Below, piece by piece: positions 1,170 to 56,403 of a stretch of 64,000 nucleotides of DNA. Each line of letters begins with the position of its first letter. The first letter of the stretch is position 1. This DNA is from an uncultured Chthonomonadaceae bacterium (GTDB lineage Bacteria > Armatimonadota > Chthonomonadetes > Chthonomonadales > Chthonomonadaceae), in the NCBI GenBank assembly GCA_963835065.1, contig CAWIEK010000044.1, positions 1 through 64,000 of the forward strand, given 5' to 3'. The notes below the pieces were generated by a model that did not search any database, had not been told where the DNA came from, and saw only the letters and a list, made by a program, of their open reading frames with translations. Made by a program: the position numbers and the translations under genes.

Positions 1170-1280
1170 AGGTTTCAGGTTTCAGGTGTCAGGAAAAACC
1201 TTTCAACTGTTTTCATGCTTTACAGCACAAGGTAGAGGAGCAGGCGCTTCCTGACACCTGATACCTGAAACCTGAAACCT
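1170..1280. repeat. Inverted pair of heptamer tandem repeats (AGGTTTC/GAAACCT type) between fliI and fliJ
   Basis: aggtttcaggtttcaggtgtcagg ... cctgacacctgatacctgaaacctgaaacct. Confidence 0.85.
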
Positions 1281-2657
1281 AATTGGTGAATTGCGTCAGC
1301 AGCGCCCGCAGCGTGTCCATGTACGCGCTGGGCGCGTCGGCGGGCTGGCGCAGGAAGGCGTTGACCTGGTCGATTTTGGCTTTGGCGCGGTCAATGCGTG
1401 GGTTGCTGCCGTCCACATACGCGCCGATATTGATCAGGTCTTCGGCCTGCTTGTAGGTGGCGAGAATGTCGCGCAGGCTGTCCGCCGCGTGGCGCTGTTC
1501 GGGCGAGGTGATGGCGGGCATGACGCGGCTGATGCTTTGCAGCACGTCAATGGCGGGATAGTGGCCCCGGTGCGCCAGATGGCGGGAAAGGACGATATGC
1601 CCGTCCAGAATACCGCGCACCGCATCGGCAACGGGTTCGTTCATATCGTCGCCTTCGACAAGCACGGTATACAGTCCCGTAATGCTTCCCGGCCCGGTTC
1701 CCGACGTGCCCGCGCGTTCCAGCAGGCGCGGCAGCATGGCGAACACGCTGGGCGTATAGCCCCGCGTGGCGGGCGGCTCGCCAATGGCTAGACCGACTTC
1801 GCGCTGCGCCATTGCGAGACGGGTTACGGAGTCCATCATCAGCATCACGTCCGCGCCCCGGTCCCGGAAATATTCGGCAATGGCGGTTGCGACAAGCGGG
1901 GCTTTGATACGCACAAGCGCGGGCTGATCCGAAGTGGCGACCACGACAACCGACCGCTGTATGCCCTCAATGCCCAAACTCTCCTCGACAAAATCCCGCA
2001 CTTCGCGCCCGCGCTCGCCGACAAGCGCGATCACGTTCACATCCGCGCTGGAACTGCGGGCGATCATGCCCATGAGGGTGGATTTGCCGACGCCCGAACC
2101 GGCGAAAATGCCCATGCGCTGCCCCTTGCCAATCGTCAGGCAGCCATCCAGAGCGCGAACGCCGGTGGACAGGGGTTCCGTGATGCGGGGGCGCGTGACG
2201 GCGTTGGGCGGCGGGCGAATTGACGGGGTAGTAGTGGTTCAAGTCGAGGGGCGGGCCGCCGTCCATCGGCTGTCCCAGCCCGTCGAGCATCCGCCCAAGC
2301 AGCGCGTCGCCGACCTGCACCTGCTGCGTTTGGCGCGTGGCAACCACTTCGCTGCCCGGCTTGATGCCTTCCATCACGCCAAGCGGCATGAGCAGAACGC
2401 GGTTTTCCCGGAACCCGACGACTTCGGCTTTGATGGGCGGCTTCGTCGGGGTCGTAATGGTTGGCGCGGTCATAATAAATGTGGCAGATTTCCCCAAGCG
2501 CGGCGTTCGGCCCGCTGGATTCAATGACCAGGCCGATAACCTGCGTCACCTTGCCGTTCTGCTTGACCAGATCGGTGCGCAAAACGCGCTGCCGGAACCG
2601 ATCCAGATCAACGACGGGCGGCATAATGGCGGGGAAATCAAGAGAGGAAGCGTTCAT
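1279..2657 (-). CDS. fliI: FliI/YscN-family export ATPase, split over three frames (breaks near 2440 and 2215)
   Basis: GKVTQVIGLVIES, KAEVVGFRENRVLLMP, GIFAGSGVGKST (Walker A), MLMMDSVTR (Walker B) and GHYPAIDVL are spread over ORFs 2136-2729, 1967-2524 and 1279-2115. Confidence 0.92.
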
Positions 2658-2717
2658 ACCCTTAGTATCGGAAAGGCGGGCGCGGCTTTGCAGACAAAAG
2701 TTAACTTTTACAGCGCG

Positions 2718-2764
2718 TCCAAACAACATTGAACGTTGACAATGTAGTTTGGATGTGCTATGCT
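2718..2764 (+). promoter_or_regulatory. Sigma70-type promoter overlapped by a 14-bp inverted repeat (candidate operator)
   Basis: TTGACA (2736-2741), 17 bp, TATGCT (2759-2764) preceded by TGn. Inverted repeat TCCAAACAACATTG (2718-2731) / CAATGTAGTTTGGA (2740-2753), 13 of 14 positions paired. Confidence 0.75.
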
Positions 2765-2797
2765 CATAGCAGTGGAACTTTCACGGAAACATTCCCT

Positions 2798-3259
2798 ATG
2801 CCATCATCAGGCTTTTCAACAACACAGGTTGCCGATATGACAGGCTTTTCGGTGCGCCAGTTGGATTACTGGGCGCGCTACGGCATCTTTACGCCTGAAT
2901 TGCAGCAGGCAAATGGGTCAGGCACACGTAAGCGTTATTCACTCGAAGATGTCGTGCAGTTGCGTTCTCTGCGTCGTCTGCAATGTTTCCGCTGGCCCAC
3001 ACAGAAAATTCGCCGTGTCATCGTAATGCTGCGCGAGGTCATGCACGATGCAAATCCTCTGCGTCAATCTACTCTCATTTCAGACCGCAATACCCTTGTT
3101 GCTGTTTATCGAACAAAACAAGGGGAGGAATTGCTATTGGATGGATTAAAGGCCGGAGGACAACACGTTCTCAGCTTGGTTATTGAGGTGGTAGAAGCGG
3201 AAATGCAGCAACTTGTGCGGCAGTATATTTCTCAGGAAGATGTCAATGAGCAACGTTGA
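2798..3259 (+). CDS. MerR-family HTH regulator
   Basis: FSTTQVADMTGFSVRQLDYWARYG...GSGTRKRYSLEDVVQL; overlaps the start of the next gene. Confidence 0.85.
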   Translation: MPSSGFSTTQVADMTGFSVRQLDYWARYGIFTPELQQANGSGTRKRYSLEDVVQLRSLRRLQCFRWPTQKIRRVIVMLREVMHDANPLRQSTLISDRNTLVAVYRTKQGEELLLDGLKAGGQHVLSLVIEVVEAEMQQLVRQYISQEDVNEQR

Positions 3260-5905
3260 AGCGCCGAAAATGTTAGACGACGTTCGCGCCCGTTTACACG
3301 GCATCGGCTATAAGGAACCTCTGCTTATCCCTAACTATCGGTTCCGGGACATCCGTGAAAATGGTTCCACATCTGCATCGCATCACATTGATTTGGCCGC
3401 CTTTGCCCAATTTCCTCCAAGTCTACGTAGCGCCTGTATTGGCGTAACGGTATCTTCTGACACGTCACCACAGAAAATAGCAGATTTCCGTTCGCTAGGC
3501 GCACCACAAATCCTTGAGATTAACGCGGCCTCACAACAGATTACGCGCTGGAAAATGCCTGCATCCGGTTTGCCCGTATATCAGGGTAAGAGGCCCTACG
3601 CCGAAATCGAAAGGCTTTTTGAAGATTACGAAACGGATTGGTCGCCGGATACAATTTTACGCGCAAAGGAAATTGCGTACACTCCTGTTACAAGAACCCC
3701 GGACTTTATTGACATCGGCCTGATGCCCGCGCTGGAAGCGGAATTGCGCGTCAGGCTAAATGAGGATCTAAAAAACATTCTCGCTGTTTGCAAAAAGACT
3801 TTTCGGCTGCGACATTCCGAAGAAGTTTTTGAGGCCGCTTCGGAAGCCCTCTATCGTCTGTTGTTTCGGCTTGTTGCCGCAAAGTATTCGATTGACCGGG
3901 GCAAACAGCCCGAATGGGCAGAACTTTCTTCATCAGAAGTTGTGCGCGAAGTGGAAGCGTTCTTTTCTCGCGTAACCATTTTAGAACCCGCCCTGGAGGA
4001 TGTGCCGACACGCGAAGCGGCATGGAAGGCGATACGCGACGGTCTGAACCTATCCAATTTGTCGCCGGAGATATTAGCGTATGTGTATGAAAACACGCTT
4101 GTAACTCCAGCGCTTCGGAAGAAGTACAGCATTCATGCGACACCATCGGCAGTGGCAGAATACATGGTCAGCCGTTTGCCAATCCGAGAGTTGGACAAAA
4201 ACGAACGGCGCGTCTTCGAACCGTTCTGTGGCGCGGCTCCTTTTTTAGTGGCTGCATTAGGACAATTGCGAGCGGTTGAAGACGAACCTGTTTCACCCAG
4301 AAGCGCAGCACGACTATTTACAACAGATGTTGATTGGTATGGAGATCAGCGCGTTCTCCCGTGAAATCGCATTTAACTCGCTTATTTTGGCAGACGATGC
4401 GAACCGCGATAGCTGGCAGATATTCGGTGGCGATGCCTTCGTATCCACGAATTTTGAAAAGTATTTGCAGTGGGCGCAACATCGTCCTTTGCAACCCACC
4501 GCATGAAACGTTCGCCAAGGCAAAGCAGCCAAAGCCTGCCTCTGCGGTGTATGACAGTCAGGCGGCAGAAGTATTGCATCGCGTCGTGAAACGCAAACCT
4601 GTCATGTTCGGCTTCGTGCTGCCTCGCGCTTTTGCGGACGGTCAGGATTTTCGCGTGTTACGCGAAGAGGTCACCAACGCCTATGCCGATGTGTCTGTCG
4701 TAATGCTCCCGGACAAGGCGTTCGGGAAAGCAGGCCAGGAAACTGCTTTACTGATAGCGCACAATCTGCGCAAAAACAGGAACCGGTACTACTCTGCCAA
4801 TGTGAGTGAAGAGGAATGGGAAGCGTTTCTGCAAACTCGCAAGCCTTTCGACGAGTACGAAACCACTGCTTTACAGCGAAATGAGAACAACAGGCCAATC
4901 CTCTGGCATCCTCCCTTACAACGGCTTTGGGATTACCTCGATGACTGTCCCACGCTGGATGCCTATGCGGAAGTACATCGTGGCATTGAGTACAATCGCC
5001 CGGTTGAAGAATGCGTGTTCGACACGCCGCAACCCTATACGCGGACTGGTGTTCAGACAATGGACGGGTACCTGGAGGCGTTTGTAGTTAAAAGACATCA
5101 GTATCTTAGCGTTAATCCCGAGGAAATGAAGTACCTTGCATATCAGTTGCCCTGGAAATCTTCCAAAGGTGTTGGTCAACATGTCACCTACAAGTCGCGG
5201 CTATTGGCGGATTGTAGGGGCAACTGATTATGAACAACTGATTGCCTCACAAAATTTTTTTGGTATTTGGCCGAAAGCAGACGCTCCGCTGGAACTGCTC
5301 GCTGCAATCATTAACAGTCCGGTTATCAACGCCTATACGTTTGTCCATGAGGGAAAGCGGACGCATCGGGTTGAAGTACTTGCAAATGCGCCTGTTCCTT
5401 ACTTCACGCCTGAACAAGCCGAACTGATTGTTTCACTAGTTCAAGATTATGCCTCCTGTCGGCTGCGCTGGCTTAGGAAAGAGGGAGAGGAAACGTATCT
5501 GCGCGAACAGTGTCTTCAACGACTGTGGCAGATAGATGCCGCCATACTGGAAGCCTATGCGCTGCCTGATAATTTGGAACAGGAATTGCTCCAACGGTTT
5601 GAAGGGGTAAAACGCACTCCACTTCCCTTTGACTTTCCTGGATATGGGGAAGGCTATGCGTCCGCGAAAGCAGCGTTACAAACAGAAAAGGGGTTTCAGG
5701 CCGCAGTACGGCGTTACCGTGAGTTATGCAGCCAAAAGTATAGCGCCCATACAACACTTGCAGAAACTGAGGAGATGCAGCGTCTTGCGCAAATCATTGA
5801 CGCACACAAATCGGCCTCCAATCCTCTTTACGGTCTAATCGGTATCGCAGAAGGAGGCCCAACGGATGGGCGGAAAACCACGACGCCTATCTCTATCGGC
5901 CTTAA
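3246..5905 (+). CDS. N6-adenine DNA methyltransferase (type IIG/Eco57I-like MTase plus TRD) with C-terminal antitoxin-like extension; frameshifts near 4290, 4475 and 5160
   Basis: HATPSAVAEYM, VFEPFCGAAPFL (motif I), VLCNPPH (motif IV), FGFVLP and TRD-like LAAIINSPVINAY across ORFs 3213-4364, 4276-4506, 4334-5227 and 5136-6329. The end is uncertain: TAA at 5903-5905 in the shifted frame, or read-through into PIN. Confidence 0.8.
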
Positions 5906-6329
5906 ACGCCACAAGGTTTTCATTGATACAGGCGGCTGGGTGTCGGTGGAGTGGAAAGGCGACGATTACCATAAAATTGGTTCGCCTTACTATGACGATC
6001 TGCTTCGTTCAGGGGCACAGTTGTTGACTTCGGACTATGTGCTTGACGAAACCCTTACACGACTGCGGCAAAATGCCAGATTAGAAATAGCCGAAAAGTG
6101 CTGGCAGACGATTAGAGACGCCGAGAAAATCGGGCTTTTAATTGTTCTCAGTGTAGACACCTCCGTTAGGGAGGAGGCGTTCGAGATATTTCGTAAGTAC
6201 CGCGATCAGGACTTCTCATTTACGGACTGCACGAGTTTCGTCTTGGCACGGCGGCAGCAGGTGGATGTAGTATTTGCGTTCGACCACCATTTCCGGCAGT
6301 TCGGGCTGATTGTACAGCCTGTGCCTTGA
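5901..6329 (+). CDS. vapC: PIN-domain (VapC-type) ribonuclease toxin; in frame with the MTase C-terminal part as assembled
   Basis: VFIDTGGW, LTSDYVLDETLT, FSFTDCTSF, VFAFDHHF: all four acidic PIN positions present. No independent ATG/GTG seen at the domain start. Confidence 0.88.
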   Translation, partial: LKRHKVFIDTGGWVSVEWKGDDYHKIGSPYYDDLLRSGAQLLTSDYVLDETLTRLRQNARLEIAEKCWQTIRDAEKIGLLIVLSVDTSVREEAFEIFRKYRDQDFSFTDCTSFVLARRQQVDVVFAFDHHFRQFGLIVQPVP

Positions 6330-6418
6330 ATGTAGTCGCAGGCTGCCGATGTGTCTGATTCCCTTGCGGTTCCGTAGCCTATATGAGTAGAGAATAGAGA
6401 TATAGCAGGAAACTGAAC

Positions 6419-6541
6419 ATGACGATGCTGTAATTGGAACAGGCGAAACTAAATGTGAGTTATAAGACGCGGGCGAACCTGTTCAACTGGCGTAGGCAGT
6501 TTACGCCGGAACAATTCTTCAGGCGCAGTCTGTTCGTTTAG
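6419..6541 (+). pseudogene. Relic of the N-terminus of a second DNA methyltransferase
   Basis: MTML*LEQAKLNVSYKTRANLFNWRRQFTPEQF resembles the K.RSNLF.W.GQFSP start of N4-C/N6 MTases; internal stop, then truncated. Confidence 0.4.
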
Positions 6542-6576
6542 CCGGTAGAGGCAACACGGTCTGCGCAGGAGTCGTC

Positions 6577-6605
6577 TTGACGCCTGTATGCAAGGGCGGT
6601 ACACT
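6577..6605 (+). promoter_or_regulatory. Sigma70-type promoter
   Basis: TTGACG, 17 bp, TACACT upstream of the AAGGAGG RBS of the next gene. Confidence 0.55.
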
Positions 6606-6675: not shown

Positions 6676-7305
6676 GTGGCCTATTCCGATTTCACTTTGA
6701 AGGGACTGGCCCGACAGTTCAGCTTGACCATAGATGAAACGACCGACCTCTTTGCGAACGTGACGGAAACCCTCCTGCGCCCGGAGTTTCAAGCGCGGCT
6801 CGACATCATGGTTCCTCTCGCGCTGACGACTTCGACCGAAAAAGCGCGTTCCGAGTTCATCATCGCGCCCGTTCTGCTGGAACTCTGGCTGCTCAAAAAT
6901 CGCGAGATCGGATTGCTTTCCGGCGTGGAATTCAACATAGACAGGGCGCAGGGACTGGAAGGCGTCTGTGACTACATCATTACCCGCTTTCCCGAACAAC
7001 TCTTTATCAAGGCGCCGGTTCTCATGGTGGTGGAGGCCAAGAACGAGGATATGAAGAAAGGGTACGCGCAGTGCGGCGCGGAACTCATCGCGGCACAACA
7101 GTTTAATGAGCGGGAAGGCACGACAACCGAGCGGCTTTACGGTGTGGTGACTATTGGGGAACTCTGGCGGTTTATGGAGTTGGAAGGCGCGACGCTGCGG
7201 CTCGATTCGCGCAGTTACCACATTGACCGCCTGCCCAAACTCATGGGTATTCTCCTGCACCTGACCGGAATACACGCCTCAACTGAGGGCGTAACGCAAT
7301 CCTGA
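6676..7305 (+). CDS. Restriction-endonuclease-fold (PD-(D/E)XK, HsdR-N-like) hypothetical protein of the MAYSDFTL type
   Basis: EKARSE, GVCDYII, VVEAK, QCGAELIAAQ, YGVVTIGELWRF; strong RBS. Confidence 0.7.
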   Translation: MAYSDFTLKGLARQFSLTIDETTDLFANVTETLLRPEFQARLDIMVPLALTTSTEKARSEFIIAPVLLELWLLKNREIGLLSGVEFNIDRAQGLEGVCDYIITRFPEQLFIKAPVLMVVEAKNEDMKKGYAQCGAELIAAQQFNEREGTTTERLYGVVTIGELWRFMELEGATLRLDSRSYHIDRLPKLMGILLHLTGIHASTEGVTQS

Positions 7306-7455: not shown

Positions 7456-7660
7456 GAACCTTTTGCCCCACTCCCCCTGTCTAAACAGTACAAGTGTCTA
7501 CTATACAACAAAGGAGGTACAGGCCCATGTCTCACCCCTCCCGTCCGCCCTGACGCTGCTGAGGTCACGACGCCTCACTCCTACAATTTGACACAACGAG
7601 ACATCGGGCTGGAAGCGCTGTATTGCCAAGATTTCGACGATGACTCTACATACCCTTTTT
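7456..7660 (+). ncRNA. Candidate small RNA / micro-ORF element, copy 1
   Basis: GAACCT, 17 bp, GTCTAA ECF-like promoter; GGAGGT; ORF 7527-7553 (MSHPSRPP*); 52 nt identical to 46087-46138. Confidence 0.5.
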
Positions 7661-7764
7661 CAACACGAGGTCCAACGAACGCTGCATCCGCAAGCCAGCG
7701 TCTGCCCTATCCTTCGTTTCCGCAGCAACGCCTATGTTTGTTCCTGCAACGCGAGAAGCAGGAA

Positions 7765-7831: not shown

Positions 7832-8845
7832 TTATTCCGGGGAACCTTCGGCTTGCAGCCATTGCGCTTTGAGGGCGTCGCCGGATTTGCCTATGGCTTC
7901 CTTTTCGGCGTCGGCGTCTTCTTTGAGTTCCAGCGCGTGATAGGCATGAAGCCGCATCATACGCGCCATCGGGGAAATGGATTTGTCGGTGAGCGGCGAC
8001 AGCGTTTGCAGGACATTGCTGTACAGGCCGGCCTTGAACAGCTGAGACGCAATCGCCATATCGGCTTCTTCCGCATCGGTAAACGTCACGCTTTTCAGCA
8101 TGTCCACTCGCTCCACCATGTCTTTTTCCTGTGCCGCTTTGACAAAGGTAAACGTGGCGGGCAGGGACGTGTCGGTGACAGCCTCACTCCCGGAGCGTCC
8201 CACCGTCCAATGGTAGGTTTCGCCCGATTTCAGCGCGGGAGCGTCGGCGGGATAAGTAAAATGATTGGCCTTGATGTCTTTTGCCTGCCAGATTTGCGTG
8301 TTCTCGCTGTCATACACGGTAATCTGAACCGGGTCGGCCGACTGCGCGCGCCAGGTGAACGCCAGGTTTTGCAGCAAAACTTTTTTGCGCGGCAGCAGGG
8401 CGTGGAACGGCTCCGAAATCTCAAACGCGCCCCGCGTAGCCCCCTGCACATTGCGGCTCGCTTTTGCCAGCCCCGCGCGCTGATCATCGAACACGGCGCG
8501 CAGCAGCCGCGATTTCACATCGTTGCTCGGCCCGATGGGAGCCGTCACGCGGCGTTTTGTCGGCGGGTCGGTATCCGCGTAGATTTGCGTTTGCCCCGTG
8601 CTGACGAACCGGGCGGTCAGCTTGCCCCCCTTGTCCAGCGTCAGCGCATCGCCGGCAAACAGGGGGCTGAACCGCTCCAGAACGCGGGGCGCGCTCGTGC
8701 CGGATTGCGCCGTCGCCTTGCCCTGCACCTGCGCCACATAGGCAATCGAAGCCCCCGCTGAAGCCGCCATTGCCGGCCTTCCTCCCGCCATCCACACCAG
8801 TAACGCCAGAAATGCCGCCAGATTCGTGTATGTTTTGGTTTGCAT
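7832..8845 (-). CDS. Secreted DUF928-like protein
   Basis: Signal peptide MQTKTYTNLAAFLALLVWMAGG; YPADAPALKSGETYHWTV and C-terminal AGLYSNVL helices typical of DUF928; follows the CHAT gene. Confidence 0.6.
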   Translation of the reverse strand: MQTKTYTNLAAFLALLVWMAGGRPAMAASAGASIAYVAQVQGKATAQSGTSAPRVLERFSPLFAGDALTLDKGGKLTARFVSTGQTQIYADTDPPTKRRVTAPIGPSNDVKSRLLRAVFDDQRAGLAKASRNVQGATRGAFEISEPFHALLPRKKVLLQNLAFTWRAQSADPVQITVYDSENTQIWQAKDIKANHFTYPADAPALKSGETYHWTVGRSGSEAVTDTSLPATFTFVKAAQEKDMVERVDMLKSVTFTDAEEADMAIASQLFKAGLYSNVLQTLSPLTDKSISPMARMMRLHAYHALELKEDADAEKEAIGKSGDALKAQWLQAEGSPE

Positions 8846-8859
8846 AATGTTCCGTCTCT

Positions 8860-11800
8860 TTATCGCCAATCGCCCATCAATACAAAGGGCGCCCAACAGA
8901 AAGGCCGGGCGAACTTTGGATCGTGGAGCAGTTTCAATTCCGCGCTTTGCAGGGCGGCGGCTTTGCTTTTGCCGTTTGCCAGTTCCGTGTAAAAGGCTAC
9001 CATCAGTTCTTTGGTGCTGTCATCGGCCACGCTCCACAGGCTTGCGATCACCGTAGCCGCGCCCGCGCGGGCAAAGGCTTCCGCCAGCGAAGCAATATCC
9101 TTGCCGTCGGGGTTGGACATTCCCAACACTGTCTGGCAGGCGGACAGCGTGACCAAATCCACTTTGTCCAGCGCCATTCCTTCCACTTCGCCCAGGGTCA
9201 ATTGCTCATCTCCGGGCTTGTCATTTTTGGCAAGGTAGATGTAGCTTTGCTCCGGCGCGCGCTGGTTCAGGACGCCATGCGTGGCGAAGTGCAAAATCCG
9301 CCGCGTCAGAGTTTTGGGGGCGTTGATAGCCGCTTTCGTCGCGTCCGCGCCCGACAGCGCTTCCGAATTGGGAAAGACGCGGGCAATGGTGTTGACTTCC
9401 TCGCGGGCAAAGGGCAGGCCCGCTCCCGTCGGATCGCCCAATGCCAATAATCCCGAACCGAGTTTGGCCTCGTCCCGCTTTTGCGCAACCGAAAGCGCAT
9501 CCCCTGCGGTCAGGCACACCACCTGCTTACCCTCAATCAAATAGCGCAGGCTGTTCCCCTGCTTTTTCGCCAATGCCTGCATCGGCAGGTAGTACAGCAG
9601 TTGCGAGGGCACAAACGCAATCGTTTTTTTGGCTGCAAGGTCGGCTTCGAGGGGCGCGATGAGCTTGTCATACAGCGCGGTCAGGTTTTGGGCCAGTGGG
9701 CTGTCAACCGGCAATGCGCCCTTCGCTTCCGGCTCATCCACGATCTGCTGCCGCGCTTCGCGGATGTGCCCATACAGTTCCGTGATGGTTCCCGGCGGCG
9801 TGTAGATTTTGAAGCCATCTCGCGTCACAAGGAAGATATAGAGTTGTTCCCCAAGCGGCGCGTATTCCACAATGGCGACATCGGCGGGAAGGTCGCGCTG
9901 CACCCGCTTCAACTCTTTGGGCGCAATCGTCACCACGCGGTCATAGTTCGGGTTGGCTTTTTTGAGTTGATCCGTAACCGTGTAAAACTCGCCCTGCGTT
10001 TGCGCGACCAATTTCGTCAGCATCTGCACGGCTTCCGGGCTGCGCTGCGCTTCCGGTTTGGATTGTTCGGCTTGCAATTGTCCCTGCGCCGTTTGCAGTT
10101 GATTTTGCAGCGCGCCGGCTTTGTCCAGCAATGCCTGCAAGGGTTTGTCGCGCGTCTTGATGCTCGACAAACGCAGCGTATCCTGAAGCTGTTTGGATTT
10201 AGCGCGGTTCAGATACTCGAACGCTTCCTCGCTGCGCCCCATCTTAATCAGCAGCTGCACAATGTATTCATATACGCGGTAATTGGCTGCGCGATTGGCG
10301 AACCCGCTTTCTGACGCTGCGGTGGCGCGAACGTTTTCCTGAATTTGGATGCTCTGCTTGTAGGCTTCCAGCGCCTCCGCCTGCTTGCCCTGCGCTTCCC
10401 ATGCTTGCCCCTTCAAGCGCAGAGTATAGGAGCGGTCTTCCACAAGGTCTATGGCTTTTTCCAGATCATCGGCCTGCGCAAGCAAGGGCAGGGCGTCGGC
10501 GGGCCGGTTTTGCTTGATATGCGCGTAGGCCAGGCTGTCGAGGGCGCCGGTCAGATAATATTTGTTGTTCAGCGCTTGCGCCATTTTCAGCGCCTGCTGC
10601 CCGTACTTTTCGGCTTCATCTCCGCGTCCGGCTTCGGCGGCAAGGGTAGACAGGCGCTGCGCGATGGAGAACAGCCCGCCGGTATTTTGCGCGGCGGCAA
10701 ACGAAACCTGCGCCTGCTTCGCATACTTTTCCGCGTTCTGTATATCGCGCCTGTCCCAGTAGATGTCCGTCATTGCCGTCAGGGTAATGCCCAATCCCTG
10801 CTCGTCTTGCGCGTTGCGATACAATTCCTGACTTTCCTGCATTTCTTTGAGCGCCTGATCCGGCATGCCCTCATAAAGATGCAGTTCGCTGACGAGTTTC
10901 AGCGTGGAAGCGCGCATGACAGCCCGCACCCGGCGCGCAAACGGCAGCGCGTCGGTGGGCGGGAGCGCGTCGGGCGCTTTGAGCGCCTGATCGTAATAAG
11001 TCTGGGCGGCGCGGTAATCCCCGCGCTGCGCTTCCAGCGAACCGATATTTTTCAGCAGCGTCACTTCATCCAGCGCGGAAAGCACAGTCTTGCCGATTTT
11101 ATAGTATTGGGTAAGCGCTTCATCCGGGACCTGGTTCCCTTTCGCGTCCAATTTTTCCGCATGTGTCTGGTCAATATCGCGCTGCCGCAGGGGGGCGTCG
11201 TCCCGAAAGGCTTGCAGCGCCTGCAGGTAGTAGGCGCGGGCGCGGGCAAAGTCGCCCGTATAGAAATGGTGCAGAAAGGCCAGCGCCTTTAAGCCTTCAA
11301 ATACCTGGCGTTCGGGCAAATCGGCGGGCAGTTGGCGGCGCAAGGCAAGCGCCTCTGTGAGCAGTTTTTCCGCCTGTGGGTAATGGACGCGCAATTCTTC
11401 TATCTGGCCGGACGTTTGCAGCAAGCCGGCAATCGCCGCTTTTTTCGGATTCAGGGCTGCATCGGGCGCTTTGTCGCGGATTAAAGCGGCAAGTTCCTGT
11501 TGGCGCAGTTCCAGTTCCTGCTGCGCGTACTTGCTTTGCGTGTCTACATCGCCATTCGGACGGGCGGCATTTTGCAGGGCCGCAAGCGCTACATAGCGGT
11601 ACGAAAAGGGCAGGCTGTCTATTTGCCACTGGAGTTTGCGGCGCGAGTCCTCATCTTTGGCCGCGTCCTGCTGCTGCTGCATGAACCGGATGTATTTTTC
11701 GATGCGCGGCGCGACGTAGTTGAGGGTTTCTACATAAAAGGCGCGTTCGCTTTGATAGGCTTCCTGCTGCAGCGTGGAATACCGCGCGAACCAGCCAGCG

Positions 11801-12201
11801 GACTCGTCGTTTTTATCCTGCTCAAAGTTTTTCCACGCGAGAAAGCGAGCGGCCTGCGCCATGCGCGCGGAAGTTTCAGCAAAGGCCAGCGAATTGGGAG
11901 GCAATGTTTTGCGTTCCGCTTCGGCTTTGGCGAAAGCAGCGCGGGCTTCGGCCCCGTCCTTGAGCGGCGGCAGACCCCGTGTGGTGTTTTCCTGGTATTT
12001 CAGGAGCATTTCGCCGCGCTTCAACACCTCCTGCAGCGTCTGAACCGCTTCGTTCGATGTGACGGGGGAGGATTTTGCCGGGGGTTGCGCCTGGGGAGCG
12101 TTTTGCGCCCAAACTCCGCCAGCCGTCGCGCTCAAAAGCGTGACGGCCAGAAGGGTATTGGCGCGCTGTAGAACAGCTAATTTCATAGTTCTATCGTTCA
12201 T
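8860..12201 (-). CDS. TPR-repeat plus CHAT (caspase-HetF) domain protease with signal peptide
   Basis: Many TPR-like helices; ILHFATHG (catalytic His), LVTLSACQT (catalytic Cys), ASLWSVAD, PFCWAPFVLMGDW. Confidence 0.92.
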   Translation of the reverse strand: MNDRTMKLAVLQRANTLLAVTLLSATAGGVWAQNAPQAQPPAKSSPVTSNEAVQTLQEVLKRGEMLLKYQENTTRGLPPLKDGAEARAAFAKAEAERKTLPPNSLAFAETSARMAQAARFLAWKNFEQDKNDESAGWFARYSTLQQEAYQSERAFYVETLNYVAPRIEKYIRFMQQQQDAAKDEDSRRKLQWQIDSLPFSYRYVALAALQNAARPNGDVDTQSKYAQQELELRQQELAALIRDKAPDAALNPKKAAIAGLLQTSGQIEELRVHYPQAEKLLTEALALRRQLPADLPERQVFEGLKALAFLHHFYTGDFARARAYYLQALQAFRDDAPLRQRDIDQTHAEKLDAKGNQVPDEALTQYYKIGKTVLSALDEVTLLKNIGSLEAQRGDYRAAQTYYDQALKAPDALPPTDALPFARRVRAVMRASTLKLVSELHLYEGMPDQALKEMQESQELYRNAQDEQGLGITLTAMTDIYWDRRDIQNAEKYAKQAQVSFAAAQNTGGLFSIAQRLSTLAAEAGRGDEAEKYGQQALKMAQALNNKYYLTGALDSLAYAHIKQNRPADALPLLAQADDLEKAIDLVEDRSYTLRLKGQAWEAQGKQAEALEAYKQSIQIQENVRATAASESGFANRAANYRVYEYIVQLLIKMGRSEEAFEYLNRAKSKQLQDTLRLSSIKTRDKPLQALLDKAGALQNQLQTAQGQLQAEQSKPEAQRSPEAVQMLTKLVAQTQGEFYTVTDQLKKANPNYDRVVTIAPKELKRVQRDLPADVAIVEYAPLGEQLYIFLVTRDGFKIYTPPGTITELYGHIREARQQIVDEPEAKGALPVDSPLAQNLTALYDKLIAPLEADLAAKKTIAFVPSQLLYYLPMQALAKKQGNSLRYLIEGKQVVCLTAGDALSVAQKRDEAKLGSGLLALGDPTGAGLPFAREEVNTIARVFPNSEALSGADATKAAINAPKTLTRRILHFATHGVLNQRAPEQSYIYLAKNDKPGDEQLTLGEVEGMALDKVDLVTLSACQTVLGMSNPDGKDIASLAEAFARAGAATVIASLWSVADDSTKELMVAFYTELANGKSKAAALQSAELKLLHDPKFARPFCWAPFVLMGDWR

Positions 12202-12573: not shown

Positions 12574-13467
12574 TTAATCAGGGTTAGGAACATACTTCGC
12601 GCGGCAGCGTTTCAGGTAGTTGAGGCCGTGTACCTGCCCGGTCATTTCCAGCTCGTTTTTGTATACGGGGTCGTGCCAGCCTTCGATGTCAATGCTGCCT
12701 TTGAACCCGCCCCGGCGCAGTTCCGAGATAATGTCCGTCCAATTGCTGTCGCCGAAACCGGGCGTCCGGTGAAAGGCGAACGTTTTGGGGCCGTGTACGC
12801 CATGCTCGCGCACCACGTCCCACAACACCGTCGCGTCCTTGCCGTGTACGTGAAAGATTTTCTTCACCCATTGGCGCAGCTGCGGCATCGGGTCAATCAG
12901 GCTGACCATCTGGTGACACGGTTCCCATTCCAGACCCATATTGTCGGCGGGAACGGCATCGAACATCATTTCCCACGCTGCCGGGCCGTGCGCGATGTTC
13001 CAATCCCCACGCCTCCAATCGCCGCCCATGTCGCAGTTCTCAAACGCGATCCGTACCCCGTTGTCCGCCGCCCGTTTTGTCAACGCCCCGAACACGTCCT
13101 TGAACCGCCCGATGGAGTCGGGAATGGGCTTGTCGCGCAAGCGCCCCGTGAATCCGGCCACAATATCGGCTCCGAAAAGCGGCGCGTGGTCAATGGCGGC
13201 TTCCCATGCGCGCAGGGTTTGCAGATCGGTTTCCTCGCCCTCCAGCGGGTTGCCGAATACGGCCAGCGAACTGACAACCGCCCTGTCGCCAAGAACATCC
13301 TTGACGCGGGGAGCCAGTTCTTTCAGGTTCGCGCCCCCAAGCGTCTGCCAGAACGAAATCTGAATGCTTTCAAAACCATGCGGCAAAATCTGCCGAATGT
13401 ATCCGGCGGGATCGGCCTGCTTGCCGTCCGCCATCGTGCCGATACGAATATCCGGCGTGTAGTCCAT
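12574..13467 (-). CDS. Sugar phosphate isomerase/epimerase (TIM barrel)
   Basis: IAFENC, GLEWEPCH, HVHGKD, PGFG, IDIEG metal-binding motifs. Confidence 0.85.
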   Translation of the reverse strand: MDYTPDIRIGTMADGKQADPAGYIRQILPHGFESIQISFWQTLGGANLKELAPRVKDVLGDRAVVSSLAVFGNPLEGEETDLQTLRAWEAAIDHAPLFGADIVAGFTGRLRDKPIPDSIGRFKDVFGALTKRAADNGVRIAFENCDMGGDWRRGDWNIAHGPAAWEMMFDAVPADNMGLEWEPCHQMVSLIDPMPQLRQWVKKIFHVHGKDATVLWDVVREHGVHGPKTFAFHRTPGFGDSNWTDIISELRRGGFKGSIDIEGWHDPVYKNELEMTGQVHGLNYLKRCRAKYVPNPD

Positions 13468-13545
13468 GCGTTTGCTCCTTCGCGAAGATGAATAACCTTC
13501 GTCTGAATGGCCTTCAAAGATGCGGAAGACGGAGAAGGAGGAAAT

Positions 13546-13643
13546 AGACAGGATTAAAAGGATTAGAAGGATTGGACAGAATTATTCTGGAGTCTTCCAA
13601 AAGAAATCCTGTCTAATCCAACTAATCCCTGTTAATCCTGTCT
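13546..13643. repeat. Imperfect inverted short-repeat pair (AGGATT units)
   Basis: gacaggattaaaaggattagaaggatt ... aatcctgtctaatccaactaatccctgttaatcctgtc. Confidence 0.6.
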
Positions 13644-15322
13644 ATTTCTGTTCCGTCTGCATCATCCATTGATTGCGCAGAACGATTTGGTCGGGTGTGG
13701 CTTGCGGCAAGGGATGCAGTTCGGCGTCCAGTCCGGCATACCCGAGACATTCCGCGAACGGCATTTCCTGCGTGGAACGCGCCAGCAGGTTGTAAAACTC
13801 CGTTAAATCCAGTTCCGCGACCCGGTTGATGGTGTCGCGCAGGCCGTCTTCGTCGTAGCCGGGGTTGGGCGGGGCGCATTGCTTGTACAACGCGCGCATC
13901 ACGTCGTCGAGCGAGCGGCGATTATGCGTGACATGGCGGATTTTTAGGTCGAGGCACAGTCCGATGAGCGCGCCCTTTTCGTAATACGACAGGCCGCCAT
14001 CTCCCTCGCTGTTGCCGCTTTCCCACACGCGCCAGCTTGCCTGATCCGCCGTGACCGTTAATCGCGCCGGGTTGCGCTGCATCGCGGCAATCGCGCGCTG
14101 CCAGTGCGCCAAAAAACGATCTTCCGTAGACAGTCCGGCGCGGCGAACGGCAACGTAGGCGTAATAATCCGTTACGCCCTCGGCAAACCACAGATTGCGG
14201 GTGCGCGGCGGATGCTCGTAATCGAACGGGCCGAGTACGCGGGGCCGGATGCGCTTCACGTTCCACTGATGGAAAAACTCGTGCGCGACAAAGGGCGCGA
14301 ACCGTTCCGCCGAGCCGCCAGGACGAAAGGGCAGGCGGCAGGCGTTGAGATGCTCCAGTCCGCCGCCCCGGCCATTCACTTCCAGCAGAAACTCGTACAG
14401 TTTGCCCGGTCGCGCCGCCCATGATTTTGGTTTCCGCCCGCGCGATTTGCAGCAGCATCTTGTTGGTGGCTTCCACATTCGCAAGGGACTGCGCAGCGCC
14501 GAAGTACACGGGCCGATACGTTGCGGACGGCAAATTGTCCAGATGCAGATCGAATGTTTGGATCGCGTCCTGCTGCGCCATGACAAGGGGCGAGTCGGCA
14601 AGCGTGTCATAATCGGGCGCATCGAACGCAGCGCTGTTGGGATTGGGCGCGGCGACAGCAACTTCCGGCTGCGCGGCTATCGGTTCTTTATGGACGGGGA
14701 GCGGCGTTTCGGCCTTCCATCCGGGCGGCAAATTGGCAATCAGGCGCGCGGGCGCGGCCTTGTGTCCGGCCACATACAGCAGCGCGGACGCGCCATTGAC
14801 GAACACATACCGGGGCCGGAAATACACGTTCTCGCTGAAATAACCGGGCGGCATTTGCGGCAGCGCGTACTCGACCCGAATTCGACCCGCTTCTCCTGTC
14901 TTGATTGTCCACGTACTCGCGTCCGGGTGCGTGACCTCAAGCATTCTCTGGTCCCGCGCCACGAGCGCATCCGAGGCTTGCAGATTTTGCGCGTACTTGC
15001 CGAAGTTCTGTACATGGTAATCGCCCGGACTCCACACCGGCATTTGCACCGTCACTTCGCCCGGCCTGCCATCCGCTTCCGTTTTTCCGCCGCTGACGGG
15101 TACGTCGAACGTCATCGTAACATGCAGCAGGGGAGGCATTGCGCCAACATCCGGCCTGACTTCGTATATGATCGGCCCCGCTTCCGCTCCACGCTTTGTC
15201 TTCGTTGCCGCCAAACCTGACTGCGTTTGCGCGACGGGAACGGTATGTCGGTAGGACGTAAAGAAGGCTAAAATAACTGTGATAGGCGCGATTAGCAGCG
15301 CGGTATTGCGGGGAAATAGCAA
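13642..15322 (-). CDS. M61-family glycyl aminopeptidase; frameshift near 14415
   Basis: MPVWSPGDY, DYDTLADSP, GGGLEH, AHEFFHQWNVKRIRP, LWFAEGVTDYY, SYYEKG. Confidence 0.9.
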
Positions 15323-44489: not shown

Positions 44490-45761
44490 ATGCGACTTCT
44501 CTTTTTGACAACCTATTATCGTCCTGAAAGCGCGACCAATGCCATTTTGATTACCCTGCTGGCGGAAGAATTGGCCCGTAAAGGCCACCAGGTCACCGTT
44601 GTGACGGGTATGCCGCATTATGACAACAACAAAGTGGAAGCCAAGTACCGGGGCAAATTGTGGATGCGGGAGCGGCAGAACAATGTAGATATACGCCGCG
44701 TGTATCTATATGTGCCGGAAAACAAAAGCCGCTTAATGGGACGATTGCTGAACTATATTTCTTTCAACATCACGTCTGCCCTTGCCATTCTGCTGACGCC
44801 GCGCCATGACGTGCTGTTTGCGCCCTCGCCCCCGCTCACGAATGGCATGACCGCGTGGTTCACGAGTTGGCTGAAGCGGATGCCGTTCGTATACAACGTG
44901 CAGGACATTTACCCCGATGTGGCCGTCCGGTTGGGCGTCCTGAAAAACCCGCGCCTGATCCGCCTGTTTTCCCGCATGGAACTCTTTGTATACCGCAAAG
45001 CCGCCGCCGTGAGCGTGATTTCCGACTGCTTTCAGCGCAACCTCGCGGCCAAACAGGTTCCCGCGTCCAAATTGAAGGTAATCTCGAATTTCGTGGACGT
45101 GGACTTTGTGTATCCGCATCCGCGCCGCAACGCCTTCAGCCACGAACACAATCTGGACGACAAGTTCGTGGTCGTCTTCGCGGGCAATGTCGGGCTATCG
45201 CAGGGATTGGAAACGGTTTTGCTGGCGGCGCAAAAGCTGGTCGTCATGCCGAAAATCCATTTTCTCATCGTGGGCAACGGCGCGTCGAAAAGCGAATTGA
45301 TGCGGCAGGCCGAAGAGATGGGGCTGAACAACCTGACATTTTTGCCGCTCCAGCCGTATGAGCGCGTCCCGGAACTGTATTCCGCAGGCGATGTGTGCCT
45401 GATTCCACTGAAACGTGGCCTGACGGAAGACTCGGTTCCCAGCAAACTGTGGACAATCATGGGCGTAGCGCGTCCGGTTGTGGCGACGGTAGACAAGGCA
45501 AGCGACACGTACAAAGTGATTCAGGAAGCGGGCTGTGGCCTGTGCGCGGAAGCGGAAGACGCGGACGGCATGGCGGCGGCGATTGCCCGCCTGTACAACG
45601 ACTGCGAACTGGCGGCGAACATGGGCAAGCAGGGCCGAGCTTATGTCGAACAATTCTACACGCATGAGCGCGTTTCGGAACAGTACGAGCAGCTATTCGC
45701 CGCTTTAATCGCCGCGTCCGAACGTCCCAAAAACTTTGCCGACGCAAAACGCACGGAGTAA
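44490..45761 (+). CDS. Glycosyltransferase family 4 (WbuB-like)
   Basis: YYRPE, GMPHY, PSPP, VQDIYPD, AGNVGLSQG, VPSKL. Confidence 0.9.
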   Translation: MRLLFLTTYYRPESATNAILITLLAEELARKGHQVTVVTGMPHYDNNKVEAKYRGKLWMRERQNNVDIRRVYLYVPENKSRLMGRLLNYISFNITSALAILLTPRHDVLFAPSPPLTNGMTAWFTSWLKRMPFVYNVQDIYPDVAVRLGVLKNPRLIRLFSRMELFVYRKAAAVSVISDCFQRNLAAKQVPASKLKVISNFVDVDFVYPHPRRNAFSHEHNLDDKFVVVFAGNVGLSQGLETVLLAAQKLVVMPKIHFLIVGNGASKSELMRQAEEMGLNNLTFLPLQPYERVPELYSAGDVCLIPLKRGLTEDSVPSKLWTIMGVARPVVATVDKASDTYKVIQEAGCGLCAEAEDADGMAAAIARLYNDCELAANMGKQGRAYVEQFYTHERVSEQYEQLFAALIAASERPKNFADAKRTE

Positions 45762-45873
45762 TCGTTTTGTACGGCGTATTGGAGCAAGTACCGCGTACTG
45801 CCGCGTGTAACCGGTATATACCATTTAAATCTCTCTAAAGATAGAAAAAAGAGCCGGACAGCGCGAAAAATGC

Positions 45874-46157
45874 GAACCCTTTGCCCCCCACATCCGTCTA
45901 AACAGTAGAACAATGTCTGCGATATAGACGTTCTACCCACAGGAAGGCGGAACGTTCGCAGTTCCTATCAACCTAAAACCCTAAAACCCTAAAACCTAAC
46001 CCAGAAGGGAGGTGCCAGTCCTATGTTTCACCCCTCCCGTTCGCCTTGACGCTTCTGGAGGTCACGACGCCTCTCTCCTACAACCAGACACAACGAGACA
46101 TCGGGCTGGAAGCGCTGTATTGCCAAGATTTCGACGATCTCTCTACATACCCTTTTT
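45874..46157 (+). ncRNA. Candidate small RNA / micro-ORF element, copy 2
   Basis: GAACCC, 16 bp, GTCTAA; GGAGGT; ORF 46023-46049 (MFHPSRSP*); 52-nt core identical to 7590-7641. Confidence 0.5.
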
Positions 46158-46378
46158 TCCACCTACCCGTTTCTCAATGTTTCCCATTGGCAACAGTCAG
46201 GCTTCCCGCTGATTCGGGAACTTATAGATTTACGTATACTAATACTGTACGTTTTTGTTCCGATGATTATCAGACCCCACAAAAGCCCGTCACGGTTTGA
46301 GTAGTTCTGAAATAAGAATTCCGGTGGAGCGCATGGCTCTACCGGAATTCTTTGATTATGGCTTTTTCATCAGGGATG

Positions 46379-47281
46379 TCAGGCGGGCGTTTTGTCGCCC
46401 TCTTCCTGATAATCGTTCTGGTATTTCTTCTGGTAGCCTGCCTGATAATCTTCCCGGTACTCCGGCGCAGGCTCTTCATGGCGCGTGGCATGTTCCCGAT
46501 GCGTAAAGCCATCGGCGGACGCTTCGACATGCGCTGCGATTTGCGCTGTTGAAGCGCGGCCCAACATTCGGCGCAGCAGCGACAGCAAAACCGCGTAACC
46601 GGTTTTACACAGAACGGTCATATCGAGCCGGAAGCAGCGCTGCATCACATAATCCACGTCCATGCGGCACTTGATGGGCAGCAAATTCTGGATGTAGTAT
46701 TCTTCGCGGTTTTCCAGTCCGCGCAGCATGTTTTCTTCTTCGCGGAATTTCAGCTGTGTCGGGCCGGTAATGCCGGGGCGGACGGTGAGGATGATGGCGC
46801 GTTGATCGGCGGGAAACGCTTCCACAAAGCGCGGAACTTGGGGGCGCGGGCCGACCAGACTCATTTCGCCAATCACGACATTCCACAATTGGGGCAGTTC
46901 GTCCACCTTACAACCGCGCAGGAACCGGCCTACCCTGGTCACGCGCACATCGTCGGCAGCGGTAATGAGCGGGCCGCACTGGTCGGCGTCGTCGGTCATG
47001 GTGCGGAATTTCCAGACCCAAAAGGGACGGCCATAGCGCCCCACGCGAATCTGTTTGTAAATGACCGGTCCGCGCGACGTGCAGCGAACCGCAACCGCCG
47101 CGAAAAGCAGGCAGGGGGAAAATAGCGTCAGCAGGACCGCGCCGGCGGCCACGTCGAAGCTCCGTTTAGTGAACTCGTACATCAGTTTGGATGAGGAATT
47201 AAATCGCACTGTTGAAAAAGTTTCATCCATGCGCGGATTGTGCCTTTCCACAGGGTTTGCGTCGCAGCCGATTATTCCCAT
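46379..47281 (-). CDS. Bacterial sugar transferase (priming phosphoglycosyltransferase)
   Basis: KRSFDV, KFRTM, RVTRVGRFLR..KVDELPQLWNV, GEMSLVGPRP, RPGITG; start uncertain. Confidence 0.92.
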   Translation of the reverse strand: MGIIGCDANPVERHNPRMDETFSTVRFNSSSKLMYEFTKRSFDVAAGAVLLTLFSPCLLFAAVAVRCTSRGPVIYKQIRVGRYGRPFWVWKFRTMTDDADQCGPLITAADDVRVTRVGRFLRGCKVDELPQLWNVVIGEMSLVGPRPQVPRFVEAFPADQRAIILTVRPGITGPTQLKFREEENMLRGLENREEYYIQNLLPIKCRMDVDYVMQRCFRLDMTVLCKTGYAVLLSLLRRMLGRASTAQIAAHVEASADGFTHREHATRHEEPAPEYREDYQAGYQKKYQNDYQEEGDKTPA

Positions 47282-47642
47282 ATTTTCCTTTCGATCTTAG
47301 CTGTGATCTGCGAAAGGGATCAGGCGGCATGGCTCGCGCATCGCGCAAGCAATGGGGGGAACGCCCCTGCTCCACAAAACATCGTTCATCTCGAAACAGG
47401 ACGCAGCGGAAAGTTTACGGCCAGCGAGACTTTAGTTTTTTCGGGACTTTGTTGTGTCCTACAAGCAATGCTTTGAAGCCCGCTTCCTGCAACAGAAGTT
47501 CAAGTCATAGACGACTCACTTTCCGTAAAGGTACGTGTTGTTGCAGCGAAAGTTGCCTGTTCTTTGCGCCGGGCATGACAAAGCACTCTAATCATACCAG
47601 AATTCTGCGGGGTTTGGAGCAAACCGGCAAACTTTCCGCAAT

Positions 47643-47693
47643 AAAACATAAAAACGCTTTTGCAAAGAACTGAATTGACTTTGCAAAAGCGTT
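47643..47693 (-). terminator. Intrinsic terminator after tRNA-Pro(CGG)
   Basis: 15-bp perfect stem AACGCTTTTGCAAAG / CTTTGCAAAAGCGTT followed by a T-run on the minus strand. Confidence 0.7.
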
Positions 47694-47733
47694 GGATTAG
47701 CGGCTTCGCGCCCATGCGAAGCCCGAATGTGTA

Positions 47734-47807
47734 TCGGGGTGACAGGATTCGAACCTGCGACCTCAGCGTCCCGAACGCTGCGCTCTACCAAGCTGAGCCA
47801 CACCCCG
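47734..47807 (-). tRNA. tRNA-Pro(CGG)
   Basis: CGGGGTGTGGCTCAGCTTGGTAGAGCGCAGCGTTCGGGACGCTGAGGTCGCAGGTTCGAATCCTGTCACCCCGA; anticodon CGG. Confidence 0.96.
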
Positions 47808-47858
47808 GTGTCCGTTCCGCGTCACGGGGAAACTCTCCCGCAACACGAAACCAATACT

Positions 47859-47887
47859 AGTATAGCACAAGGGCGTAGTTTCGTCAA
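47859..47887 (-). promoter_or_regulatory. Sigma70-type promoter for tRNA-Pro(CGG)
   Basis: TTGACG, 17 bp, TATACT on the minus strand. Confidence 0.7.
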
Positions 47888-47987
47888 GGACAGACCTGTA
47901 CAGTGCTGCGGCTTCGATCTATTTTACCGGTCTCTGCCCGCGCAGGCTTGAAAGGGATTTTGAAGCGACATTTGAATCAACAACGGA

Positions 47988-48016
47988 TTGACCGCTACAG
48001 GATTGTAGGCTATACT
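47988..48016 (+). promoter_or_regulatory. Sigma70-type promoter for the STAND-WD40 gene
   Basis: TTGACC, 17 bp, TATACT; short palindrome CTACA-GGAT-TGTAG in the spacer. Confidence 0.6.
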
Positions 48017-48065
48017 GTCAGACAACAAACCTTTGTTATGAATCGTGTGAGATAAGGATGCACGG

Positions 48066-51932
<3,867 letters not shown>

Positions 51933-55865: not shown

Positions 55866-55934
55866 ATATTGCAAGGAGTTGCAAAAGTTTAACCCGCCTT
55901 ATGCAAAAAAAGTGACATTATTTTGTTGTGTATC

Positions 55935-55963
55935 TTGACGCATGGTATAACGCATGGTATACT
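55935..55963 (+). promoter_or_regulatory. Sigma70-type promoter of the tail operon with tandem 12-bp repeat
   Basis: TTGACG, 17 bp, TATACT; ACGCATGGTATA twice at 55938-55961. Confidence 0.65.
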
Positions 55964-56403
55964 AAACTGTCAGGAATACTTGGTTCTCCGCTTTCCTCGC
56001 CAATTTTCCCCTGATTTATGACCTCTATCGCATTTTTGCAGCATACTTTGCGCAAAGATTGTGTTTGCAGCCGTTTTCGCAGCGATATTTTTGGCGGACG
56101 CCCGGCCATATTATTTATGGCGCTTTCGCCTTTTGCACTAATCAGCTCTACCCGAAATCAGCTCGATTCGATATTTGACCTGTCAGATATTTGTTGTGCC
56201 GGATATTTGCTCCACCCTGAATTAGTCCGCTTGTAATCAGCTCCACCCGCATCCAATTTAACAATCCAATAGCGTCCGTTTTCTGGTTGCCTGGTATTTA
56301 TTTATCCGGCACTCATTTGGTCACGCGGCGGCTGCCATCGTCGGCATACCGTCCATTGAGGGCAGCGTTCGACCGCCAAACGAAGCGCAGCAAAGGGGAA
56401 ATC

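Follow-up and report, generated by a model that had tools for sequence, protein, structure and literature searches.

A Type IIG-like methyltransferase with a VapB-type tail beside a vapC gene, and a family of relatives whose C-terminal tails match the downstream toxin-type gene

Guards tied to restriction-modification enzymes, such as PrrC, Ronin and PARIS, are known as single cases. Ronin is reported to keep its toxin, RonA, suppressed by HsdM and HsdS in the absence of HsdR, with ArdA and Ocr as triggers (10.1101/2023.04.06.535777). In PrrC–EcoprrI, as far as the accessible parts of two accounts go, an RNase is silenced by a restriction-modification enzyme and freed upon its inhibition (PMC12707154, PMC3710099). 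The accessible part of a survey of PIN genes places them beside Type I hsdM and hsdS, sometimes with neither a restriction enzyme nor a visible antitoxin (PMC5499597). Here we describe a three-gene cassette in a 64,000-nt stretch of DNA from an uncultured Chthonomonadaceae bacterium (contig CAWIEK010000044.1 of assembly GCA_963835065.1; the whole stretch is called the window, and position 1 is its first letter). A MerR-type gene precedes a Type IIG-like N6-adenine methyltransferase, which carries a VapB-type tail and overlaps a VapC/PIN ribonuclease gene. Related enzymes nearly always carry a C-terminal tail matched to the next gene, and we tentatively read the cassette as a guard or decoy. 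Labels beginning with G, L and P denote comparison genomes, loci and proteins, G000 being the window's own genome; X1 and X2 are sequencing runs of one or more other strains.

The cassette lies on the plus strand between fliI and a PD-DExK gene and has the following features:

2718..2753, no strand: inverted repeat covering the -35 box, with 14-bp arms (13 matching) 8 bp apart; among 300 shuffles, one attains 10 matches
2736..2764, plus: sigma-70-like promoter TTGACA-17-TATGCT, 10 of 12 consensus matches
2798..3259, plus: MerR-type helix-turn-helix regulator, 153 aa (Pfam MerR_1, E 3.8e-9), overlapping the next start
3246..5905, plus: Type IIG-like N6-adenine methyltransferase with target recognition domain (TRD), ~885 aa when read through, stop TAA at 5903-5905
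3246..3695, plus: N-terminal PD-(D/E)xK-fold domain without the catalytic motif, a predicted dead nuclease (model and alignment)
4218..4232, plus: methyltransferase motif I, EPFCG, read from the sequence
4493..4504, plus: methyltransferase motif IV, NPPH, common to the nearest relatives
5655..5816, plus: helical-hairpin module, HNH-linked in other loci (profile match and tree position)
5811..5905, plus: VapB-type C-terminal tail (LxGLIG..GGP.D and HDxYLY), split by an assembly error near 5867
5851..5857, plus: Shine-Dalgarno sequence AAGGAGG of the PIN gene, inside the tail coding region, at the same site in G017
5866..6329, plus: VapC/PIN ribonuclease gene, 154 aa (PF01850, E 1e-8), its own ATG being in frame when the missing base is added

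Each described system resembles the cassette in part. As in Ronin, a proposed decoy for anti-restriction proteins, a modification enzyme with a predicted dead nuclease is tightly linked to a toxin gene; in the accessible text Ronin consists of HsdM and HsdS of Type I and a single membrane toxin of 61 aa, and no antitoxin domain is fused (10.1101/2023.04.06.535777). Instead of two genes for HsdM and HsdS and a membrane peptide, RonA, the window has a single-chain enzyme and a PIN protein, and its family combines a Type IIG scaffold and degenerate nuclease domain with a covalent type II antitoxin tail and many toxin classes. EcoprrI is an active Type IC enzyme and PrrC an ABC-ATPase–HEPN protein, and the accessible parts of the accounts mention neither an antitoxin tail nor exchange of toxin folds (PMC12707154, PMC3710099); no Type I hsdRMS with an ABC-HEPN anticodon nuclease occurs in the cassette. 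With BpuSI, DrdV and MmeI the family shares the predicted order of nuclease fold, helical domain, gamma-class methyltransferase and TRD on one chain, but it lacks conserved D and (D/E)xK residues for catalysis and has in addition a variable C-terminal module with a coupled toxin gene. VapBC pairs of the VapC20 class, including one in G017, share with the window the PIN fold and acidic positions, and the tail, Shine-Dalgarno sequence and overlap are as in the G017 pair; the small antitoxin with its N-terminal DNA-binding domain is, however, replaced by an 850-residue methyltransferase bearing the tail, and regulation probably falls to the MerR-type gene. The PIN survey, in its accessible part, lists no PIN beside putative Type II systems and no fused antitoxin tail (PMC5499597). 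The cassette would work like Ronin and PrrC but belongs to neither, and it departs from the canonical form both of Type IIG enzymes and of VapBC pairs. We found no account of the family in the literature, a search that left supplements and most subscription papers outside its scope, such that an earlier mention is possible.

The methyltransferase as assembled runs into a helical extension ending in NPLYGLIGIAEGGPTD, with AENHDAYLYRP* lying one frame off and closed by the TAA at 5903-5905, both as the original prediction described. One added base near 5867 joins the enzyme to AENHDAYLYRP, giving ~885 aa in total, and by the same addition ATG 5866, 8 nt behind the AAGGAGG at 5851-5857, enters the PIN frame; the PIN gene then overlaps the methyltransferase end by ~40 nt. 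G017, a genome of the same family as the source, encodes a stand-alone 81-aa AbrB-type antitoxin (TIGR01439) followed by a PIN protein 58-59% identical to that of the window, and the DNA of this pair aligns over the junction with one single-base gap and the same Shine-Dalgarno sequence and ATG. Judged from these alignments, the methyltransferase and VapC are separate genes that overlap, and VapC has a start of its own. The original prediction had proposed a methyltransferase–antitoxin–toxin fusion, which two compensating indels would make complete. This we reject, because X1, with a single inserted base, and G017, with its one-base gap, show a single-base difference that gives VapC its own Shine-Dalgarno sequence and ATG; a PIN domain without a start, in frame with the methyltransferase, exists in the assembly only.

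By homology, the tail is of the same class as the antitoxins that precede VapC20-like PINs. It is identical to the AbrB-type antitoxin of G017 at 12 of 20 positions, and 10 of the 13 PIN homologues examined are preceded by a small open reading frame (ORF) with an HDxY-like end, the others comprising one without upstream sequence and two more distant ones without the motif. A profile built from those ten stand-alone antitoxin tails and run on 403 methyltransferase tails recovered P0024 (E 7e-9) and the window tail (E 4e-7, or 3e-4 without G017), with the next best match at E 0.17; the motif in the window tail is thus no chance resemblance, and the claim that such an ending is typical of antitoxins ahead of this class of PIN gene is borne out. 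P0024 carries a second, independent HDxYLY tail outside the window's clade. Among 14 candidate long proteins none had the G017 tail, which is a weak test, and none of 12 relatives from a C-terminal search ended in a VapB tail. The closest solved structure to the PIN protein is Mycobacterium tuberculosis VapC20 (E 3.5e-9), named in its structure entry as a 23S rRNA endonuclease, and four acidic positions are kept. The window thus has a PIN with its acidic residues as a gene of its own and, as far as homology goes, an upstream partner with the cognate C-terminus. The tail would very probably neutralize VapC, a step common to the guard, addiction, DNA-sensing and passive-capture readings weighed below.

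Over 614 aa the scaffold shares 70% identity with P0001, and with full-length relatives the figure is 44-50%. A model of the intact relative P0002, with a predicted local distance difference test score (pLDDT) of 88.5, matches CamA, M.BseCI, BpuSI, DrdV, MmeI and BrxX, with DrdV aligned across residues 1-772. Modeled alone (pLDDT 94), the first 150 residues of the window enzyme adopt a PD-(D/E)xK fold whose best matches are DrdV (Z 9.3, root-mean-square deviation 3.8, 124 residues aligned) and BpuSI (Z 9.2, 2.8, 121); Foldseek alone gave no match for this domain at E 0.001 or better, and the wider structure search did. With catalytic positions assigned by eye from the fold, 59 sequences contain no invariant acidic or lysine column there: the likely catalytic D position holds P in 26, D in 11 and E in 7, with A-C-[FI]-G-V as the following core strand. 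We read the enzyme as having a predicted Type IIG fold and a nuclease predicted to be dead. The original prediction had recognized no nuclease motif, correctly, but had overlooked the nuclease-fold domain. It had also reported the NPPH of motif IV, which occurs as stated; NPPF or NPPY is found in 247 of 264 sequences, and NPPH recurs in the near relatives P0001, P0002, P0170 and L095, on which ground we reject it as a sign of decay. In current annotation, family proteins appear simply as N-6 DNA methylases; their PADLOC matches are weak and of a generic methyltransferase kind, and an ESM Atlas search returned only generic N6-methyltransferase clusters. We also rejected assignment to MADS, given E-values of 7e-6 for mad1 and 5e-5 for mad2, a MAD2 score of 14.9 bits against a cut-off of 720 and a cassette of only three genes.

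For the family we examined 161 loci: from two sets of related stretches, numbering 273 and 340, the best 80 each, plus one locus. A complete C-terminus is present in 144, of which 141 have a next gene and the other three end at or near a contig edge, and none of the 141 stands alone. The next gene starts within -60 to +30 nt of the stop in 132 of these loci. Across all 141 it encodes a PIN protein in 81, a metallo-beta-lactamase in 34 and an HNH protein in 17, with HEPN-like, RES, MazF, PIN_3 and DUF7689 partners making up others. Tail and partner match closely. The commonest tail precedes one PIN class in 78 of 78 loci, and three single divergent tails precede the same PIN; a beta-rich tail precedes the metallo-beta-lactamase in all 34; helical tails precede PtuB-like HNH genes in 13 of 14, 2 of 3 and 2 of 2 loci, the last pair being duplicates. 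A fourth tail precedes a HEPN-like gene in 2 of 2 loci, a label based on a motif; Pfam gave no HEPN match. RES, MazF, PIN_3, another PIN (weak, E 0.01) and DUF7689 each follow at single loci. The exceptions are L076, where the next ORF is unclustered, and L123 (667-5024), where a helical tail is fused in frame to what we read as an AAA-ATPase-like domain followed by DUF4276, an arrangement that is presumably PARIS-like. Active-site motifs are kept in 17 of 17 HNH and 31 of 34 metallo-beta-lactamase partners. At E 1e-30 or better the family comprises 802 protein clusters, and across representatives at 50% identity, 139 tails form 24 clusters. The guard or addiction idea put forward at the outset gains strong comparative support from this pairing, since hardly any methyltransferase homolog lacks a tail suited to the toxin-type gene behind it, and the PIN neighbor expected among homologs is found in abundance.

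Some family proteins carry other domains at their ends. P0174 and P0196 end in domains that we take to be RelE/ParE-like, with no Pfam match, and in P0269 a PF13676 domain, presumably TIR, is joined to a TRD and helical tail.

Exchange of tails and toxins across the whole family, which the original prediction had missed, is apparent on a FastTree phylogeny of the tail-less core (87 rows: 78 loci retained from 128 at 75% identity, the window and eight proteins). On it, 15 tail/partner labels need at least 20 changes, against a theoretical minimum of 14, and the HNH label alone needs five, four of them forced by starred branches. The window nests with helical-tail/HNH members at 100% support, and its helical extension (5655..5816) matches an HNH-linked tail profile built without it at E 2.5e-14. 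The last few residues of the hairpin and the HNH gene are missing. Judged from profile match and tree position, the hairpin is a relic of an HNH-partner module, an older origin that had escaped the original prediction, even though the extension itself had been noted. Since the window falls in the HNH clade, its hairpin scores as it does and its closest relatives end at the hairpin, the locus most likely swapped HNH for VapC; the alignments are most readily explained by recombination into a vapBC operon with the old hairpin retained.

Three tail types also occur on other carriers, ahead of the same toxin class. Among 31 loci of the PtuB-like HNH class, three lie behind a methyltransferase and two lack upstream sequence; of the other 26, 21 lie behind an ORF ending in a helical tail (E <0.001), mostly a small protein and once a fragment cut by the end of its contig; as background, 8 in 15,916 ORF ends score at 12 bits. 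The metallo-beta-lactamase-class hydrolase gave five matches in 401 genomes, one behind a methyltransferase, two behind other carriers of a beta-rich tail and two without an assigned upstream carrier. L233 and L235 encode proteins of ~250-280 aa, receiver-like in our reading, which end in a beta-rich tail ahead of the same hydrolase class. G000 itself encodes small stand-alone helical-tail proteins on C37 (~55460-56300), C7 (~5600-6500) and C49 (~511750-512060), two preceding frameshifted HNH genes and one without HNH. Such stand-alone proteins look like an unnamed type II toxin-antitoxin class.

We consider it possible, at somewhat under even chances, that the cassette is a guard or decoy in which the tail would silence VapC and inhibition or loss of the enzyme would free it. 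The joint swapping of tail and toxin gene among relatives suggests such a tripwire. In such a scheme, the MerR-type protein would repress the promoter through the inverted repeat, and the methyltransferase would bind, and perhaps methylate, its own site while holding VapC by the tail. VapC could then be freed by a DNA mimic (Ocr or ArdA, for example), or when the enzyme is degraded or shut off, and would halt translation and abort the infection; its target may be the 23S sarcin-ricin loop, as for VapC20. In the history suggested by tree and alignments, recombination into a vapBC operon would have given an ancestor with a helical tail and HNH the VapB tail, and VapC in place of HNH. The intact X1 sequence, the VapC start, the tail class, the family-wide pairing and exchange, the tails on other carriers, the second HDxYLY tail of P0024, the degenerate nuclease, the precedents of Ronin and PrrC and the patchy distribution all point in this direction. 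Broader and held with more reserve is the proposal that a widespread, undescribed family of nuclease-dead Type IIG enzymes serves as a plug-in sensor platform, making guards against phage anti-restriction from ordinary type II toxin-antitoxin pairs, with the window as a recent HNH-to-VapC swap.

If so, the platform would accept PIN classes, HNH, metallo-beta-lactamase, HEPN-like, RES, MazF and DUF7689 partners by grafting the toxin-binding end of an antitoxin, and its tails would name antitoxins for toxin classes without described ones. The family would then show a general route to guards, in which an antitoxin's binding end is fused to a methyltransferase scaffold and the toxin is swapped repeatedly. 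For several unnamed modules, among them the helical tail of the PtuB-like HNH class and the beta-rich tail of the metallo-beta-lactamase class, an antitoxin function is predicted. The set is directly testable and includes members on plasmids of cultured Rhizobiaceae.

Several observations weigh against the guard reading. Plain addiction or passive capture would give the same pairing, as a toxin once captured cannot be kept without its antidote. For the commonest tail no carrier other than methyltransferases was seen: 4 of 4 PIN matches in 301 genomes lie behind the enzyme. Many loci are near-copies, as the reduction from 128 to 78 indicates, and the tree is a quick one. Stacked helical and VapB tails occur only in the window and X1, and the closest relatives end without a VapB tail. 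Pfam assigned none of 19 isolated tails to an antitoxin family, and three of 34 proteins scanned gave weak, sub-threshold matches to Xre/MbcA/ParS or PrlF antitoxins. Among 115 neighboring ORFs, PADLOC found a match at only 9 of 30 loci, 2 of them mobile-element genes, without a background control; most loci lie outside obvious defense islands, the window's among them in its place between fliI and a PD-DExK gene.

Addiction without sensing, in which the tail neutralizes VapC and the link only kills cells that lose the cassette, thereby retaining the methyltransferase or a mobile element, predicts the same pairing and suits the patchy presence, variable insertion site, members on three plasmids and weak defense-island signal. 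Antitoxins must be unstable, a role to which a large folded enzyme is poorly suited; the dead nuclease domain is conserved family-wide, a better fit to a shape-keeping decoy, and at least 20 toxin exchanges suggest an arms race. We regard addiction as unlikely. Distinctly unlikely is a DNA-sensing effector whose TRD reads unmethylated incoming sites and switches on a bound toxin, the downstream gene replacing the lost nuclease. Methyltransferase motifs and TRD are indeed retained in a Type IIG architecture that has lost its nuclease, NPPY or NPPF predominates and HNH partners could cut DNA; yet most partners are predicted RNases or other non-DNases, and the same HNH class is paired with the same tail on small non-methyltransferase proteins, which argues that HNH acts like the toxin of a toxin-antitoxin pair and not like a restriction subunit. 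Passive capture, in which the 3' end of the gene acts as a recombination sink for nearby toxin-antitoxin operons, the tail is kept solely to neutralize the toxin and the enzyme and toxin functions have no further link, accords with the abundance of such pairs in these genomes and with the orphaned helical tail, new module behind it, in the window and L123. It is nevertheless quite improbable, in that chance capture would leave many loci toxin-free and all 141 have a partner.

A last alternative concerns the assembly, in which the methyltransferase falls into four reading frames with breaks near 4296, 4476 and 5156; relative to an intact frame there is one extra base near each of these and one missing near 5867. 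Two X1 contigs span 2602-6582 and differ from the window in 61 and 67 letters, which places them in a different strain, 94-98% alike to the window sequence in these short-read contigs. X1 has one base fewer at each of the three breaks and one more behind 5867, and over 5680-6060 it shows the single insertion and 13 listed substitutions, none of these between 5752 and 5972; X2 likewise lacks the base at 4296. The neighboring fliI (1279-2660, minus strand) is interrupted by two extra bases, near 2215 and near 2447, that 3 of 3 relatives lack, and most breaks fall in short homopolymer runs. On the evidence of a comparison strain's contigs, not of reads from this genome, we put all four frameshifts down to assembly errors with near certainty, as the original prediction had supposed. 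The broken fliI shows that single-base errors are frequent in this assembly, and other split genes in the genome call for caution. That the locus is decayed or a one-off artifact, its breaks genuine and its tail a chance junction of two dead genes, is therefore most improbable: the four breaks do stand in the assembly and the correcting contigs do come from another strain, but X1 has none of them, X2 lacks the one at 4296, fliI is broken likewise, homopolymer runs hold most of the breaks and the PIN active-site positions are intact. A pseudogene is unlikely on the same grounds.

The source genome comprises 71 contigs and is 92% complete. At 48-53%, the G+C content of the cassette compares with 57% for the genome, and its nearest named homologs include Chthonomonadaceae and Armatimonadales records, which points to a probable Armatimonadota host. 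The family is sparse, with counts of 10 in 401 genomes and 6 in 401. In three cultured Rhizobiaceae the enzyme is plasmid-borne; its partner is PIN in two, one of them Sinorhizobium chiapasense, and RES in the third, which has a different, longer tail. One plasmid copy adjoins Shedu. A search of a phage collection gave no match to the locus, and RNA data listed no holder of it.

The MerR-type gene, proposed from the start and confirmed by Pfam, has a MerR-like counterpart upstream in 21 of 134 family loci with enough upstream room. The inverted repeat is likely its operator: a similar sequence precedes a 54% identical paralog of the regulator on C65. Promoter-type sites in the region are no more numerous than in shuffles, which makes TTGACA-17-TATGCT a consensus match only, and a repeat search over the cassette gave nothing notable and missed the operator repeat. 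Two more cassettes of a MerR-type gene and a large methyltransferase-like gene lie in G000, on C65 (~12800-14750, L013) and C7 (~45650-49250, L014). They belong to a different family, one enzyme having 1026 aa and the other being in pieces, and the C65 copy has the same operator and promoter sequence.

In G002 the cassette is absent from the equivalent site, where there are a different 1.2-kb insert and a gene that we take to resemble a REP (repetitive extragenic palindromic)-associated transposase. The PD-DExK family gene downstream of the cassette (window 6676-7305; PADLOC E 8e-47) is also present at the corresponding site in G002. Beyond it, a short dispersed repeat at ~7535-7665 has 162 matches in its own genome and many in G001 and G002. 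Window positions 7832-12201 on the minus strand encode, in our reading of the translation, a 1113-aa TPR-rich protein with a CHAT-like C-terminal domain and an adjoining 354-aa partner.

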